Part shown: one piece after another, positions 8,246-62,559 of the stretch
Position numbering within the stretch: position 1 is the first letter of the stretch
Layout of the letters: each line of letters begins with the position of its first letter
Source: Candidatus Eiseniibacteriota bacterium
GTDB taxonomy: Bacteria > Eisenbacteria > RBG-16-71-46 > CAIMUX01
Direction: 5' to 3'
DNA length: 64,000 nt
Assembly: GCA_963833505.1 (NCBI GenBank)
Contig: CAWHYG010000004.1
Location: 223,025 to 287,024 of the forward strand
Program-made: the position numbers and the translations under genes
The notes under the pieces: model-generated
What the model was told of the DNA's origin: nothing
Database searches by the model: none
Seen by the model: only the letters and a program-made list of their open reading frames with translations

Positions 8246-9732
8246 CCCCGGGAGCGGGCCCGCCTCCGATCGGCCGCGCCGAGGGCGCGCCGGCACAGGT
8301 GACCGAGCACACCTTCGTCATCCTGGGTGGCATGGGAGACCTGGCCGGGCGGAAGCTCCTGCCCGCGGTCTTCCGCATGGTCCGGGACGGAAGGCTCAAG
8401 AGCATGCTGATCGTCGCAGCCTCCCGGAATCGGACGATCGACGACGACGCCTATCGCCGCTGGGCGCGACAGGCACTGCTCGACGCGGGCTTCGCCGAGA
8501 CCGAGCTGTCTCGATGGTGCGACGAGTGCCTCTTCTACGAGCCGGTCGGCGAGGGATCGCTCGAGGACTATGAGGCGCTGGGCGAACGGATCCGCTCCCT
8601 GGAGCAGGGACGCGGCCGTTCGGAGAACCGGATCTTCTATCTGGCCCTGCCTCCGGAGGGGTTTTCGCCGGCGATCGAGAGCCTGGGCCGGGCCGGGCTC
8701 AACCACAGCAGCGGCTGGACGCGCATCGTGGTGGAGAAGCCCTTCGGCCGCGATCTGGACTCGGCCCGGTCGCTGAATGAGGTCCTGCACCGGAGCTTCG
8801 ACGAAACGCAGATCTATCGGATCGACCACTACCTGGGCAAGGAGACGGTCCAGAACGTGCTTTGCTTCCGCTTCGCCAATCCCATCTTCGAGTCCCAGTG
8901 GAACCGCGAACGCATCGGCCGGGTCGAGATCACGGTGTCCGAGAGCCTCGGCGTGGAAGGCCGCGGCGGCTATTACGAGCAGGCCGGCGTGCTCCGGGAC
9001 ATGATCCAGAACCACCTCACCCAGCTTCTCACGCTGATCGCGATGGAGGTGCCGGGGGGCTTCGGCGCGGATGAGATCCGCTTCGAGAAGATCAAAGCCC
9101 TCCGCTCCATTCCATCGATCGGGCCGGAGGACGTCGTCTACGGGCAGTACGGGCCGGGACAGATCGAAGGAAAGGCGGTCGTGGGCTACCAGGCGGAATC
9201 GAGGGTCGCGCCCGACTCCAAGGTTCCCACCTTCGTGGCTCTCCGGCTGTCGATCCAGAACTGGCGCTGGCAGGGGGTCCCCTTCCTGCTTCGAACCGGC
9301 AAACGGCTGCCTCGTCGGTCCACGCGGATCGCCGTCGTGTTTCGGCGTCCTCCGGTTTCCATCTTCCGGGATCTGCCGCCGGGCGCGCTGCACGGCAACG
9401 TGCTGCGGCTCGACCTCGAGCCCGATGAAGGCTTCCACCTCACCTTCGACGTGAAGAAACCGGGATCGCCGCGGCGCTTCTCCACCGAGGTTCTGCAGTT
9501 TCTCTACCGCGAGGCGTTCGAGCCGCTGCCGCCTCCGTACGAGACCCTCCTCGTCGACGTCGTCCAGGGGGATCAGACCCTTTTCGTGCACTCCGATGAG
9601 GTCGAGGCTTCCTGGCGCTTGTACACGCCGGTGCTGCAGCAGGAGCGGCCGGTCTTTCCGTATCCGGCGGGAAGCTGGGGGCCGGGGGAAGCGGATGCGC
9701 TGTTGAACGGAGAGGCTTGGATGATGCCCTGA
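8242..9732 (+). CDS. zwf: Glucose-6-phosphate 1-dehydrogenase
   Basis: 496 aa with the 'RIDHYLGKE' G6PD signature. The ATGA overlap with the upstream gnd suggests translational coupling. Confidence 0.9.
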   Translation: MTPGAGPPPIGRAEGAPAQVTEHTFVILGGMGDLAGRKLLPAVFRMVRDGRLKSMLIVAASRNRTIDDDAYRRWARQALLDAGFAETELSRWCDECLFYEPVGEGSLEDYEALGERIRSLEQGRGRSENRIFYLALPPEGFSPAIESLGRAGLNHSSGWTRIVVEKPFGRDLDSARSLNEVLHRSFDETQIYRIDHYLGKETVQNVLCFRFANPIFESQWNRERIGRVEITVSESLGVEGRGGYYEQAGVLRDMIQNHLTQLLTLIAMEVPGGFGADEIRFEKIKALRSIPSIGPEDVVYGQYGPGQIEGKAVVGYQAESRVAPDSKVPTFVALRLSIQNWRWQGVPFLLRTGKRLPRRSTRIAVVFRRPPVSIFRDLPPGALHGNVLRLDLEPDEGFHLTFDVKKPGSPRRFSTEVLQFLYREAFEPLPPPYETLLVDVVQGDQTLFVHSDEVEASWRLYTPVLQQERPVFPYPAGSWGPGEADALLNGEAWMMP

Positions 9733-58136: not shown

Positions 58137-58978
58137 CCGGTGAAAGCGGCAGCGACAAAGCAAGACTGATCGTGGTGCTGCAGGCCTGGGGCGGGGGAGG
58201 TCCGGAGGTCTGCTCCGAAGAGATCTTGGCGACCCCCTCCGCGCTTCGCGCGGAGGGTCGGTCCTCCTCCGGGGTCGCGCTTCGCGCTCCGTCCTTCGCT
58301 TCGCTTCGGACCTCGACCCGCTCCGCGGGTCTCGCCCTCCGTCCTCCCTGTCGCACGCTCGCTGCGCTCGCTCGGACCCTTGCCCTCCCACGTTTCACAT
58401 GGAAGATGGAAACAGCGACCGCATGGGTCGTTACGTGGAGACGGTGAGCGGTGGTGATGAACCATTGCCTCTTTGACGCCACCGGCTGCAACCCGGCCAG
58501 CGGAAGCCTGTGGCTCATATCCCCGGAGGCCACCCGCATGTCTACCTTCCCCGGGGTTCGCTGCTGCACGTCCCAATACACCCATCCGGCGCTGGGATTG
58601 GGCCGACCCCGCCCGCCTGGCACCAACCCAGAAGGACCTGTATCCCGCCTTCACGGCGGGATCGGACCCCCCGCGGGCACGGAAGAACTCGTCGTCGATG
58701 ACCTTTTGTGGGCTCCCGGAAGCTGACCGTGTCCGGACACAACAATGGTCCGATCGAGACCGGGCCCTGGGTGAACCGCACGTCGGAGAATGAGCGCTGC
58801 CATGGACCACGGCAAGATCGCGGTTCGGACCATCCACGAGATTCGTGTCCCTTCGGCACCGGTGCGTAGGCGCGTCGATTCCCGGGATTCCGCTGGGATT
58901 GGCCGGGGCGCCGCCGTCCGGTGGCGTGTCTCGGTCCCGGGTGGCAGGGAGGCGGGGCGTGAAAGGAGAGAAGCCGGG

Positions 58979-60701
58979 CTACCCCGGCGGGCCTGTCGCC
59001 GGCGCGCTGGTGCCCAGTGCGTCTCGATAGTTCCAGGGCATCCAGCCGGAGGGGTTGGCGGCCGTCTCGCGGGGGTGTCGGAGAACATCGACGAGATAGC
59101 GGAAGGGATCGGCCCCGCTGAGCTCGGCCGTGTGGATCAGGCTCATGAAGAGGTCCCCCACCCGGGCGCCGTTCTGCGTCTTGTAAAAGAGGGAGTTCTT
59201 GCGGTGCACAATGGCGCGCTTCAGAGCTCTTTTCGCAGATCGTGTTATCAAGGGGTGCGCCGGGTTTCCTGAGGAACAACGTGAGCTTGTCCCAGTGCTT
59301 TTCCATATAGGAGATGGCGTCGCCCAGGCCCGAGTTCGGCTCGACCAGGTGCTCCTCGAACTGCTCCCGGCCCCACGTCCTGAGCTTCTCCATGATGGGT
59401 CCGCTCTGGTCCCGGTGAAAGGCGAGGCGCTCCTCGGTTCCCATCTTCCGCTCGCGAGCGAGAGCGTCGTTCCGGTAGACCGCGCGCAAAGTCTCGAACA
59501 CGTAGCGGCATTCGTCGGGGAAGCGATCGGCCACCTGGACGAAGTTCCTCCTGGCATGGACGAGACAGCTCCCCACGATCGTCTCAAAGTCTCCGCTGGT
59601 GTTCCGGGAGAGCGCATCGCACATCTGGATGGGCGGGGACAACTCCTCCGCCCGTCGCTTCAGCACCTGCTCCAGGTTCTCTCCCGCGTGCTTGCGACCG
59701 GTGAAGAAGAGCGCCATCCGGTGCTCTCCCGTCCGTGAGACAATCCCGGAGGTGAAGATCCCGGTGCGCTCCTTGGGATCCTTTTCGGGTTCCGGCCGGC
59801 CGACGGCCTCCACGTCGGGATCGGCCTCCGTTTCCCCCACGAGATCCGTTCGGATGCCTGGCATCACCTCTCGGTTCGACGACTTCATCAGCTCGAGAAC
59901 CTTCATCGTGGTGTCGTCATTGTAGAAGACCTCCCCCTGGGCGGCCTGTCGGATGAGCTCCTCATGAACCGGTTCGAGCGCTTTGGCGCCGCCGGCCACC
60001 AGTTCCCATTGCGTGGCGGCGGGCAACGGGATGCCCAGGCTGCCCTCCAGCTTCTCCAACCGGTTGAAAGGAAGGCCGCAACCGTAGCGGAGAAGTCCGA
60101 TCATAGCCGTGGCCGATTCGTCGTACTTCGCCGTACCGACCCCCGGGGGCGGTTCGGCCGAGAAAACCTGGCCGCAGGCGTTGCAGCGGAGGCGCTCCAG
60201 CTCGAAGACCGAAGCTTGCAAGGGAGCCATCCCCGTGATCCGCAGCAGAGAGGCCGGTTCGTTCTGCAGGTACACCTTCCCGCGGCCGCACTCGGGACAC
60301 CCGGCGCCGTGCGTCAGCGACGCGTGCGGCACCGGCACCTTCTTCGCGCCCCAGTAGGCTTCCACTCCATGGCGGCCGTGCCCATGAGGCTTCACGGCCG
60401 ATGCTTCCTTCGACGGCGAGCCGGTCGCGCCGGCCTCTCCACCGGCGGCGGCATGGCCCTCGAACACGTCCCGGAGCACCCGGCTCGTCTTCTCCGTGCT
60501 CGGCCCGAAGAGCAACCGCCGCAGCCGATCGATCGAGGTCCCCTTCGACTCCAGCTCCCGGGTCAGAAAGCCCAGCGTATCCACCGCTGCCCTCAGCTTC
60601 CCGTGCTCCTCCGCATTCAAAGCCCCTTCTCGGGTCCGCTCGAGGATCGCCTCCAGTTCCTTCCACTCGACCTCGCGGCGCCGCATCTCTCGTCGATTCA
60701 T
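58979..60701 (-). pseudogene. tnpC: IS66 family transposase TnpC, frameshifted (+1) at an A-run near 59223-59228
   Basis: The N-terminal coiled-coil/zf-IS66 reads 'MNRREMRRREVEWKELEAILERT...'. The DDE core contains 'NDDTTMKVL'. The canonical C-terminal module 'RALKRAIVHRKNSLFYKTQNGARVGDLFMSLIHTAELSGADPFRYLVDVL' is in a different frame (ORF 58979..59617). Confidence 0.8.
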
Positions 60702-61612
60702 GCCGACCTCGTGAGGTGTTCCCGAAAGTGCCGGGTCAGCGGATAGACAAGCACATCCTTGCGCGGACGGTTGGGCCGACCGGTCTGGTCGTTCTTGCCC
60801 CGACCCGTCGTTTGACCCACGCAGATCCAGTTCGCCGCCCGGTAACAGGTGCCGCGCCACCGGGTGCGGTCGACGAAGGTCTCAGCCAGGTGAACCGGAT
60901 GGTGGTACCACCACTCCCATTCCCCCGGAAGCATCCGTACCATCCGACCGAGCAGATGGGACGCCAAATGCGGGACTTCCACCCAGGGCAGGATGAGGAA
61001 CCGGCTGTTGTAGCCGACGAAGCGGATGTTCTCGCGCCGGGCCTGAGCCGACCAACCGATGAACCGATCCCGCGGGCCGAGATGGCGGGGCGCCGAGGTC
61101 CAGAGAAAACAGGCCACCGGCCGGCCGGCCGCGAAGACCAGGTGCTTCAGGTGCTCGCCCACCGGTCGCGTGAAGCCGAGGTAGTGATGTCTTCGGATCA
61201 GGCCGTCGAACCTTCGCTCTTCCTCGGTCCGCCGCACCTGACGGAAAGTCAACGAACCCAGTTCCGCCAACGAACCGCGGATCGGCGGGGCTTCCCACGG
61301 AAGAAGCGTCGGCTCCGGTGACGGCCGCGATCGGTCGGGCATCTTCATGCGCGGCGGCGGCAGCGTGATCTCGCCCGCACGGTCCAGGGCCAGGAGCAAC
61401 CCGCGGCAGACACCATCGCGCGGGTATCCGTTCGGTTGCATCCAACCCCAGGCCGCGCACAGTTCGAGCGACAGGGCGCGCCGACTCGCACTCGGGTTCT
61501 TCGCCAGAAGCTCGCGGACCAAGAGCACATCCGACTCGGTGATCGGACGGCCTCGATACTGCAGAACCGTGCTCATGCGGAAGGGAATAACCGAGGGCGG
61601 AAAAGAACGCAA
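60698..61612 (-). CDS. DUF4338-like protein (the domain family that includes Druantia DruA, recalled from memory), carried as a passenger inside the IS66 element
   Basis: 304 aa with the motifs 'IRRHHYLGFTRPVGEHLKHLVF', 'FLWTSAPRHLGPRDRFIGW', 'RFLILPWVEVPHLASHLLG' and 'GTCYRAANWICVGQTTGRG'. Its stop overlaps the tnpC ATG as ATGA. Confidence 0.5.
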   Translation of the reverse strand: MRSFPPSVIPFRMSTVLQYRGRPITESDVLLVRELLAKNPSASRRALSLELCAAWGWMQPNGYPRDGVCRGLLLALDRAGEITLPPPRMKMPDRSRPSPEPTLLPWEAPPIRGSLAELGSLTFRQVRRTEEERRFDGLIRRHHYLGFTRPVGEHLKHLVFAAGRPVACFLWTSAPRHLGPRDRFIGWSAQARRENIRFVGYNSRFLILPWVEVPHLASHLLGRMVRMLPGEWEWWYHHPVHLAETFVDRTRWRGTCYRAANWICVGQTTGRGKNDQTGRPNRPRKDVLVYPLTRHFREHLTRSA

Positions 61613-61655
61613 GAGAAAAAACGATCGCCGGAAGAAAAGAGGGGGGCGCCCAGTC

Positions 61656-62018
61656 TCACGCCCCCACCGTGACCCGACGCCAGATCGGCGCCGCCCGGGT
61701 CGAACCGGGATCTCCGCCGGAGAAGAGCACCGCCAGCTCGTGCGCCCGCATCGAGCTCGCCCGCTCCTTCTCGTCCGCGGGCCACCAGCGGAATCGGCCG
61801 CTCGAGAGACGCTTGTAGCAAAGCCAAAAGCCTTGGCCGTCGTACACGATCACCTTGAGGCCCGTCCCACGACGATTGCGGAACACAAAGACCGTGCCGG
61901 AGAACGGATCAGCCTTGAGGACGCTCCGACACACGCGCGAGAGACCGTCGATGCCGCAGCGGAAATCCGCCGGTTCCACCGCCACCAAGACCCGCATCTG
62001 CGGGGTGATCTGGAGCAT
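61656..62018 (-). CDS. tnpB: IS66 family accessory protein TnpB (IS66 Orf2)
   Basis: 121 aa 'MLQITPQMRVLVAVEPADFRCGIDGLSRVCRSVLKADPFSGTVFVFRNRRGTGLKVIVYDGQGFWLCYKRLSSGRF' matches IS66 Orf2. The track ORF extends to 62453 in-frame, but that part overlaps tnpA. Confidence 0.8.
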   Translation of the reverse strand: MLQITPQMRVLVAVEPADFRCGIDGLSRVCRSVLKADPFSGTVFVFRNRRGTGLKVIVYDGQGFWLCYKRLSSGRFRWWPADEKERASSMRAHELAVLFSGGDPGSTRAAPIWRRVTVGA

Positions 62019-62446
62019 CAGCGTTGCTTCCAGAGAGCGGCGGCCAGGACCAGCACCTCCGCACGTTCGTGGGTCGACAACCGGACGACGAGCCGGGAAC
62101 CGTCGGCTCCCCAGAGCTCCACCGCCGGGCCGTCGATCGTGGATCGCCCGAGCAACGACTCCGCGCCGAGTTCGACGAACCGAGTCGGTCCTCTCTTCTC
62201 CGCGCCTGCCTCGGCGCCGGCGACCCTCCGCTTCAGGGCGCCGTAGTCGAGACGCAAGGCCCGCGAGATGGGAGCGATGCCGTGCAACCGCGCCAGGAAA
62301 ACCGCGGCTTCCCACAGCTTCTCCGGCATCGCCCGCGAATCGCGATGCCGACGCCAATGCTCGATGCGGGTCCGAAGCCCATGCACCCGGGCGGGGAGTG
62401 CTCCGTCCTTCCTTGCCATGAGTCGTCCTCCTTTGGGTCCGTCCAC
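62018..62446 (-). CDS. tnpA: IS66 family TnpA-like (Orf1) protein
   Basis: 142 aa, basic and helix-rich. It sits immediately upstream of tnpB and overlaps it by 1 nt, as is usual for IS66. Confidence 0.6.
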   Translation of the reverse strand: MDGPKGGRLMARKDGALPARVHGLRTRIEHWRRHRDSRAMPEKLWEAAVFLARLHGIAPISRALRLDYGALKRRVAGAEAGAEKRGPTRFVELGAESLLGRSTIDGPAVELWGADGSRLVVRLSTHERAEVLVLAAALWKQR

Positions 62447-62559
62447 GACTCATGACGGTAGGGGGAGGCTACGCGCGAATCACGCAGCCGGGCCGAAGGG
62501 ACACCGAGATTCTGGTGGAGAGGCTTCCGGGATAGGGTTGCGTTAAGATCACCCCGCCC

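Follow-up and report, generated by a model that had tools for sequence, protein, structure and literature searches.

The contig of a Candidatus Eiseniibacteriota bacterium analysed here (CAWHYG010000004.1; "the window" is the whole stretch studied, 64,000 nucleotides) carries an insertion sequence (IS) of the IS66 family in which a fourth gene, belonging to the DUF4338 (DruA) family, stands between tnpB and tnpC. On balance, we favour the explanation that the DUF4338 gene of this four-gene IS66 element is ancestral and accessory, and encodes a Mom-like partner of the transposase. The anatomical part of this reading is held with high confidence. Its functional part, that the protein is a Mom-like modifying enzyme, is put forward tentatively on the strength of a predicted structure. 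Mom is the acetyl-CoA/Fe-dependent adenine N6 methylcarbamoyl transferase of Mu, a transposable phage.

Results

Boundaries of the element and position of the DUF4338 gene

The element measures 3,660 bp (58845-62504), is delimited by inverted repeats (IRs) and is flanked by an 8-bp target duplication. Four co-oriented genes, tnpA, tnpB, the DUF4338 gene and tnpC, lie on the minus strand between 62,512 and 58,837. The left terminal IR, on the tnpA side, occupies 62482-62504 (tip GTGTCCCTTCGGCC... read on the minus strand), and the right one 58845-58867 (GTGTCCCTTCGGCACCGGTGCGT on the plus strand). In an inverted-repeat search the two formed a pair of 23 nt, complementary at 20 of the 23 positions (87%). 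The target-site duplication reads CGAGATTC on the plus strand at 62505-62512 and is an exact direct repeat of 58837-58844; we estimate the chance of an 8-mer match at a fixed position at about 3e-5 for the base composition of the window. An earlier note on this DNA had assigned the element to the IS66 family and stated that its inverted repeats could not be found. The assignment was borne out by matches to PF03050 and PF05717, by the IRs themselves and by the 8-bp duplication.

These ends are supported because three independent lines of evidence agree on them. First, three 99.9%-identical copies (L086-L088) were recovered from short-read unitigs; one starts exactly at the IR tip and the two others, with different flanks, diverge exactly there. 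Second, L001, a distant relative with 67% protein identity, shows the same tip, GTGTCCTTTCGG, at either end and carries an 8-bp duplication of its own, GGTACAAA. Third, a blind search for IRs accompanied by an exact 8-bp duplication returned 12 further loci, with the consensus tip motif GTGWSYTTYCGGYRAGCGTGCRTG; among them was a 5,015-bp element present in two copies in one genome, with differing duplications. At one locus on a Gemmatimonadota chromosome (L040), N runs around 4975 and at 8761-8830 flank the element and led to a false IR/duplication call.

The open reading frame (ORF) between tnpB and tnpC matched PF14236 (DruA/DUF4338) with an E-value of 8.6e-25 and 87.9 bits, the gathering cut-off being 27. 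A mechanical ORF call starts it at TTG 61612 and gives 304 amino acids, the length in the earlier note, which had recognised the family correctly. The likelier start is ATG 61576, because the listed homologues (more than 100) are mostly 290-294 amino acids long and align from there. The gene thus spans 60698-61576 on the minus strand and encodes 292 amino acids plus a stop, comprising an N-terminal domain of about 70 residues and a Mom-like GNAT domain. Its TGA (60698-60700) overlaps the ATG of tnpC (60699-60701) in an ATGA sequence at 60698-60701. A 4-nt RTGA overlap between the two genes was kept in 53 of 74 junctions of related loci. Translational coupling of the DUF4338 gene to tnpC, already proposed from the overlap in the window, is thus supported at the level of sequence.

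Distribution and ancestry of the DUF4338 gene

A search for DUF4338 homologues gave at least 7,999 matches at E <= 0.001. The best 120 homologues listed were 63-82% identical to the query, plus one near-identical exception, and most homologues were found on contigs of 3-5 kb, typical of repeats that break assemblies. Among GTDB species representatives, at least 583 stretches encode a DUF4338 relative. The best 80 of these came from bins labelled Acidobacteriota, Planctomycetota, Gemmatimonadota, Proteobacteria, NC10, Elusimicrobia, Myxococcales/Polyangiaceae and other groups, and from one archaeal bin. One Bryobacterales genome held four copies.

Gene order was then compared in 83 loci chosen through DUF4338 protein similarity. 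The order tnpB, DUF4338, tnpC on one strand was found in approximately 75 of them, from many phyla, so that the gene recurs at the same place in IS66 copies elsewhere. Relative to the window proteins, the DUF4338 protein was as conserved as TnpB and more so than TnpC (mean identity 59.8%, 60.1% and 52.7%, respectively), and its identity levels co-varied with those of TnpB (Spearman 0.58) and TnpC (0.44). Variable cargo in the relatives lies after tnpC, just inside the right IR. If a passenger is defined as variable in content, peripheral and not co-evolving with the transposition genes, these downstream genes fit the definition and the DUF4338 gene fails it. Cargo was seen at L001:10651-11532, L034:8586-9158, L020:8459-10080 and L078:8384-11672; the types encountered were DUF1186, PRiA4_ORF3, a resolvase with a CcbP-like calcium-binding protein and an unknown protein, and a nested DUF4372/DDE_Tnp_1 IS. 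In both L020 and L078, the last place is taken by the gene for a recurrent unknown protein (about 190 amino acids; MNQGQSKSQPRWTDVKAKL... / MASRSKSQPTWTAVKAKL...).

Because these loci had been chosen through DUF4338, a reverse test was run with TnpC. Eighty metagenome loci were chosen solely by TnpC similarity (48-59% identity), 70 of which had room upstream, and in 51 of the 70 a DUF4338 gene lay directly upstream of tnpC. In a neighbour-joining TnpC tree of 126 sequences, the elements lacking the gene formed four small clusters nested in gene-bearing clades, and the root was reconstructed as gene-bearing. Several elements kept traces of the gene. L169 (2300-2698) is an internal-deletion remnant that retains the first 61 DUF4338 codons and the C-terminal tail; L147, at the edge of a short contig, has just the last 38 codons; and the gene-less L106, L109, L111 and L129 kept the upstream motif described below, the ATG, two codons and the ATGA junction. 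Since the gene-less clusters are nested and some carry deletion scars, the DUF4338 gene is reconstructed as ancestral to this branch, usually retained and deleted several times. It is accordingly classed as an accessory gene, dispensable and not essential, and not as cargo. Fixed internal position, recurrence, co-variation with TnpB and TnpC and ancestry on the tree all contradict the label of passenger that the gene had been given.

The DUF4338 domain with other DDE transposases

A second DUF4338 subfamily, 38% identical and with thousands of members, was found on contigs of about 2.5 kb. It belongs to an IS50-like element of 2,364 bp (L089:4908-7271, also in L090-L092) with ends CTGACTATTA... 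and termini CTGACTATTAACCACATCTC / CTGACTATTACCCATATCTC. The four contigs are 100% identical over exactly this 2,364-bp span and different outside it. The element consists of just a DUF4338 gene and a Tn5-like transposase gene. As in the window, the DUF4338 gene lies inside IRs and immediately precedes the gene for the DDE transposase, with a 4-nt overlap between the two. The two elements differ in that the IS50-like one has no tnpA or tnpB, has IS50-like ends, is of a different length and encodes a transposase with Tnp_DNA_bind, DDE_Tnp_1 and Dimer_Tnp_Tn5 domains.

Single-chain fusions of DUF4338 were also detected. Among the best 150 cluster representatives, the domain was joined to IS66, Tn5-like, IS4-type DDE_Tnp_1 and DDE_5 transposases and to a helix-turn-helix (HTH) module. 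Examples of fusions and of ISAs1-type proteins are P0198, P0229, P0230, P0241, P0246, P0252, P0262, P0215 and L085:3920-5251; a Thiodictyon plasmid protein annotated "ISAs1 family transposase" has a DUF4338 domain at its N terminus. That unrelated DDE transposases have been joined to the domain repeatedly, by coupling and by fusion, is what argues most strongly for the DUF4338 protein working with transposases.

Two further arrangements were noted. On Thiodictyon plasmid pTs485 (L084:4971-8173), a solo DUF4338 gene is followed by a site-specific integrase and an IS91-family transposase, with an IS4 element in addition, and the block is inserted between two DUF2235 gene fragments. It may be yet another mobile context for the domain. 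At L089:2856-4076 (minus strand), a called gene of 406 amino acids matches DruA, DDE_Tnp_1_assoc, DDE_Tnp_IS66 and IS66_C together; its surroundings are rich in ISs, and the ORF is probably mosaic or decayed.

Predicted fold of the DUF4338 protein and its likeness to Mom

A structure model was obtained from 73 diverse sequences, with a mean pLDDT (predicted local distance difference test) of 93.4 and a predicted template modelling score (pTM) of 0.78; an earlier model, from 23 close homologues, was poor (pLDDT 66). The 73-sequence model shows an N-terminal domain of about 70 residues, made of a beta-hairpin and three helices, a disordered linker, a GNAT-fold domain and a C-terminal extension. 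Mom was the top structural match with both models, and the closest solved relative of the GNAT domain was Mom of phage Mu (PDB 8bv8). In a fold search of viral models, the best matches were phage NAT_SF and Mom proteins. The predicted structure is thus most like that of Mom. A sequence search of the PDB with the family profile returned no match. DUF4338 had already been called a GNAT domain in a 2024 survey in Nucleic Acids Research.

Sequence comparison pointed in the same direction. The Pfam Mom family (PF25680) was matched by 39 of the 73 family members (best E 1.7e-6), and no other second family recurred. Alignment with hhalign against 32 Mom sequences gave an E-value of 0.0022 over 153 columns and reached the basic C-terminal region of Mom. 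In this weak alignment (E 0.002), H48 and Y49 of Mom are paired with H131 (73/73) and Y132 (65/73), and S114, D139 and Y149 with S206 (72/73), D/E236 (65/73) and Y245 (70/73). By mutagenesis, these five Mom residues bind acetyl-CoA and/or iron (PMC7261163). Residues H131, R169, W175, R192, E232 and W250 are invariant in the DUF4338 family, which also has its own 25-residue helical insertion (residues 162-186, with invariant R169, W175 and R180).

tnpA, tnpB and the spacer before the DUF4338 gene

The tnpA gene (62018-62419, minus strand) encodes 133 amino acids plus a stop, and its TGA (62018-62020) overlaps the ATG of tnpB by 1 nt (TGATG). The gene had been correctly placed at 62446-62018, apart from its start: ATG 62419, which is preceded by the Shine-Dalgarno sequence AAAGGAGG at 62427-62434, is likelier than GTG 62446. 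TnpA had no match in Pfam or NCBIfam. A Thiodictyon plasmid carries a canonical IS66 element of three genes, the first ORF of which encodes a protein 34% identical to TnpA (E 1e-13). The tnpB gene (61656-62018, minus strand) stands where it had first been called. It encodes an IS66 Orf2-type accessory protein of 120 amino acids, matching PF05717 (E 4.6e-30) and NF033819 (98.9 bits; cut-off 50).

The spacer between tnpB and the DUF4338 gene contains a candidate promoter motif (61584-61613, minus strand). It includes CTTGCGTTC (61605-61613) and has the spacing TTGCGT, 17 nt, TATTCC (61584-61589), 7 nt and the ATG. Of 65 distinct tnpB-DUF4338 spacers, nearly all contain CTTGCGTTC, a few of them with one base changed. 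Across the relatives, TTGCGT is followed after 17 nt, in which TG often occurs at -15/-14, by yAyrCT and, about 7 nt further on, by the start codon; the conserved bases are the extended -10 TG and, within the -10 box, A2 and T6, and no Shine-Dalgarno sequence was seen in the spacers examined. By comparison with E. coli, TATTCC makes a poor -10 box in the window copy. The motif resembles a candidate internal sigma-70-like promoter, from which a leaderless or near-leaderless DUF4338-tnpC mRNA would be made. CTTGCGTTC is almost invariant although the proteins of the elements compared are only about 55-60% identical to those of the window copy. It may therefore double as a protein-binding site, since its conservation exceeds that of a usual -35 box.

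A terminator-like GC hairpin is also present at 61642-61665 (minus strand), with an 8-bp stem, the tnpB stop codon in its loop and the T-rich sequence CTCTTTTCTT behind it. This hairpin might separate tnpAB from DUF4338-tnpC transcription in the window copy, and is not generally conserved among the relatives. A conserved RNA hairpin in the spacer was rejected, the folds of the relatives not being consistently more stable than those of shuffled sequences; conservation within the spacer is limited to the sequence motif.

The frameshift in tnpC

The tnpC gene (58979-60701, minus strand) encodes an IS66-type DDE transposase that would be 573 amino acids long with one A removed. As written, the frame breaks after codon 490. 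The N-terminal part (59232-60701) matches PF03050 and ends with GAA at 59232-59234 as the last codon before the break. The C-terminal part (58979-59230; 83 amino acids, stop at 58979-58981) continues in the +1 frame. After removal of one A, the match to PF03050 (DDE_Tnp_IS66) runs uninterrupted over the junction (E 7e-42), with a weak match to PF13817; the NCBIfam equivalog for TnpC was below its cut-off (130 + 42 bits against 180). The break coincides with four A at 59230-59233 (minus strand; GAAAAGA, GAAAAG being 59229-59234) where the relatives imply three. The lesion is thus a 1-nt insertion within DN..ER, a conserved motif located where the DDE domain ends. A frameshift at an A-run had been described before, with coordinates (59223-59228) that are corrected here.

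TnpC of the relatives is 560-570 amino acids long and in a single frame; in L001 it is intact, with 568 amino acids. In most relatives, one tnpC match ran through residue 490 without a change of frame; where the match was split, the break lay elsewhere. As the relatives stay in one frame at the A-run, the frameshift is not programmed, and programmed +1 frameshifting and transcriptional slippage were both rejected. As the sequence stands, the last 83 residues are missing from the product, which makes the window copy probably non-autonomous. It probably makes no full-length transposase and would at best be mobilisable in trans.

A homopolymer assembly error, which would leave the window copy intact and autonomous, is a possible though doubtful account of the frameshift. 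The defect is indeed a single extra base in a homopolymer, though a run of four A is short for such an error. The short-read (Logan) unitig of one of the 99.9%-identical copies, L087, stops exactly at ...GCGAAA, which is what a branch between 3-A and 4-A alleles in a de Bruijn graph would produce, and speaks against an error. An exact-pattern scan of metagenomes of the Joint Genome Institute (JGI) matched neither the 3-A nor the 4-A allele. In two other copies (P0122/P0123 and P0126/P0127, on contigs of 2.45 Mb and 704 kb in the source assemblies), the DUF4338 gene is itself split into 231 + 78 amino acids, at the same place in both, after ...EVPH. Either copies mobilised in trans have inherited the shared split as a defect, or a systematic homopolymer error has produced it; systematic long-read errors of this kind would favour an assembly error in tnpC as well.

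Insertion site

The element is inserted in an intergenic region, between a gene resembling that of the succinate dehydrogenase/fumarate reductase iron-sulphur subunit and the 3' end of a beta-helix/FlgD_ig gene. The 840-bp gene-less stretch at 58137-58978 had been thought to contain the right end of the IS or older IS debris. The first suggestion was correct for 58845-58978 (134 bp), which is the right end. The remaining 700 bp (58137-58836) are featureless intergenic DNA, in which no Pfam, Rfam, tRNA or tandem-repeat signal was found, and no additional IR copy occurs anywhere in the 64-kb window; older IS debris, a hidden gene and a hidden RNA were rejected on these grounds. This segment, between the sdhB-like gene and the IS, is GC-rich, with short runs of CTTCG (x3) and TCGC (x6).

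Discussion

Comparison with canonical IS66 elements and with Druantia

Elements of the IS66 family have three genes (tnpA-tnpB-tnpC), are usually 2-3 kb long and have the usual tip GTAAGCG. Like canonical members (IS66, IS679, ISRm14 type), the element in the window has an IS66-type DDE transposase with the IS66_C motif, an IS66 TnpB, a TnpA homologue overlapping tnpB, terminal IRs and an 8-bp target duplication. Unlike them, it has a fourth gene (about 290 amino acids) between tnpB and tnpC, a separate conserved promoter-like motif before that gene, a TnpC below the NCBIfam equivalog cut-off, IR tips GTGTCC/GTGAG and a length of 3.66 kb. Judged from its sequence, the element is a member of the IS66 family that departs from the three-gene plan, with tnpC directly after tnpB in about 2-3 kb, as do its four-gene relatives.

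The earlier note also equated DUF4338 with the DruA domain family of the Druantia defence system. Membership of PF14236 is shared with DruA of type I Druantia (DruABCDE), at 88 bits against 27, whereas the match in the window covers just profile positions 40-224 of 297 and the gene is flanked by IS66 tnpB and tnpC, not by druB-E. The window protein gave no match to PADLOC DruA models even at E <= 1, and the window contains no ORF of more than 1,300 amino acids, the DruE helicase being about 2,000. A Druantia component was therefore rejected: PADLOC was negative, druB-E were missing and the neighbours were tnpB and tnpC inside IRs. Recent Druantia papers cover DruE and DruH, and nothing was found in them on the function of DruA.

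Proposed role of the DUF4338 protein and evidence against it

In the mechanism that we propose, the promoter-like motif of the spacer would probably yield a near-leaderless bicistronic DUF4338-tnpC mRNA. The ATGA overlap would couple translation, and the DUF4338 protein would be made with, and in cis to, the transposase. The protein would then act as a DNA-directed, Mom-like acyl or carbamoyl transferase or, less likely, as a protein acetyltransferase, and may modulate transposition or protect or mark the transposon DNA. In our view, strand transfer would not be catalysed by the DUF4338 protein.

The comparison with Mom underlies this proposal. In the weak hhalign alignment, five of the six functionally mapped Mom residues fall on conserved DUF4338 residues and the C-terminal extension aligns too, and both genes are carried by DDE-transposing elements. 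The DUF4338 protein differs in its additional N-terminal domain of about 70 amino acids and in the insertion at 162-186. The gene also lacks a Com-like translational activator and overlaps a downstream transposase gene instead.

Several observations weigh against the proposal. The window protein scores 11.2 bits on Pfam Mom, against a gathering threshold of 27.1; the hhalign probability for Mom is just 13%, and the sequence link is weak; the Mom substrate residue R101, the sixth of the mapped residues, has no counterpart in the DUF4338 family; and the N-terminal domain had no match in any search. A scan with the E. coli consensus calls no promoter at 61584-61613. Among the TnpC-selected loci, 17 of 70 have plain tnpB-tnpC without DUF4338, and such gene-less relatives of TnpC still occur in several contigs; the protein is therefore not required for transposition. 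As the gene is dispensable, a selfish or host-directed role is possible. Finally, no experiment on any DUF4338 protein was found in the literature.

Alternative explanations

It is unlikely, in our judgement, that the DUF4338 gene is a functional cargo with no part in transposition, serving in defence, anti-defence or host modification. Such a gene might be a DNA modifier like Mom that counters restriction, or else a solo relative of Druantia DruA, and carriage by the IS would spread it. The Pfam family is named after Druantia DruA, 52 of the 73 family members weakly match PADLOC DruA models, and Mom, for its part, is an enzyme of anti-restriction (PMC7261163). The element has survived at least four losses of the gene; there are also a few loci with the gene but no nearby tnpC (L023, L044, L046, L056). 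Set against this are the absence of a PADLOC match and of druB-E neighbours in the window, the fixed internal position with a conserved 4-nt overlap with the transposase start while variable cargo sits after tnpC, and the co-divergence of DUF4338 with TnpB and TnpC. Single-polypeptide fusions with at least five types of DDE transposase are hard to explain if the gene is cargo.

A second alternative, quite improbable in our judgement, casts the GNAT domain as a catalytically dead scaffold or as an ordinary acetyltransferase of proteins or small molecules. DNA would be left unmodified, and the transposase would be regulated through its own acetylation, through that of a host DNA-bending protein or by mere binding. 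Y245 and S206 do correspond to general GNAT cofactor contacts (PMC7261163) and the 2024 survey speaks simply of a GNAT domain, yet Mom is the top structural match with both models and the sole second Pfam family that recurs, the C-terminal extension can be aligned along with H48/Y49 and D139, positions specific to Mom, and the invariant H131, R169, W175, R192, E232 and W250 speak against a dead scaffold.

Significance

We return to the favoured explanation, a four-gene IS66 element with an ancestral accessory gene for a Mom-like partner of the transposase. For the window itself the practical message is modest: its single copy of the IS is ordinary, intergenic and probably defective. In the literature searched, no article pairs DUF4338 with IS66 or transposons, or DruA/DUF4338 with Mom, and a search for IS66 elements with extra genes returned no relevant paper; ISfinder or TnPedia may list four-gene elements without functional comment. 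The four-gene architecture is very widespread and mechanistically suggestive, and apparently undescribed in the searchable literature. To our knowledge, IS66 is a large family whose mechanism is poorly understood, with no known roles for TnpA and TnpB, and we know of no GNAT-fold DNA-modifying enzyme other than Mom.

A broader reading, which we regard as speculative and would not expect to hold in full, is that DUF4338 proteins are Mom-like, acyl-CoA/iron-dependent DNA base modifiers. They would act in cis as partners of DDE transposases (IS66, IS4/Tn5-like, ISAs1, DDE_5) and mark or protect transposon, donor or target DNA, with Mu Mom and Druantia DruA as offshoots. In type I Druantia, new m6A-like signals (resembling N6-methyladenine) were reported in host DNA, with no methylase domain in the system (preprint 10.1101/2024.04.14.589459). 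If the broader reading is true, DruA would be the enzyme behind this signal; the suggestion is ours and not that of the preprint. For DruA, encoded by the uncharacterised first gene of type I Druantia, the likeness to Mom thereby leads to a concrete hypothesis that biochemistry can test. As for the IS66 family, a fourth conserved gene is present in one of its branches, which is very abundant and spread across phyla, and the domain that this gene encodes also occurs coupled or fused to DDE transposases of at least four other kinds. Together, these observations point to an unrecognised control of transposition, or an unrecognised interaction between transposon and host, that may operate through covalent modification.

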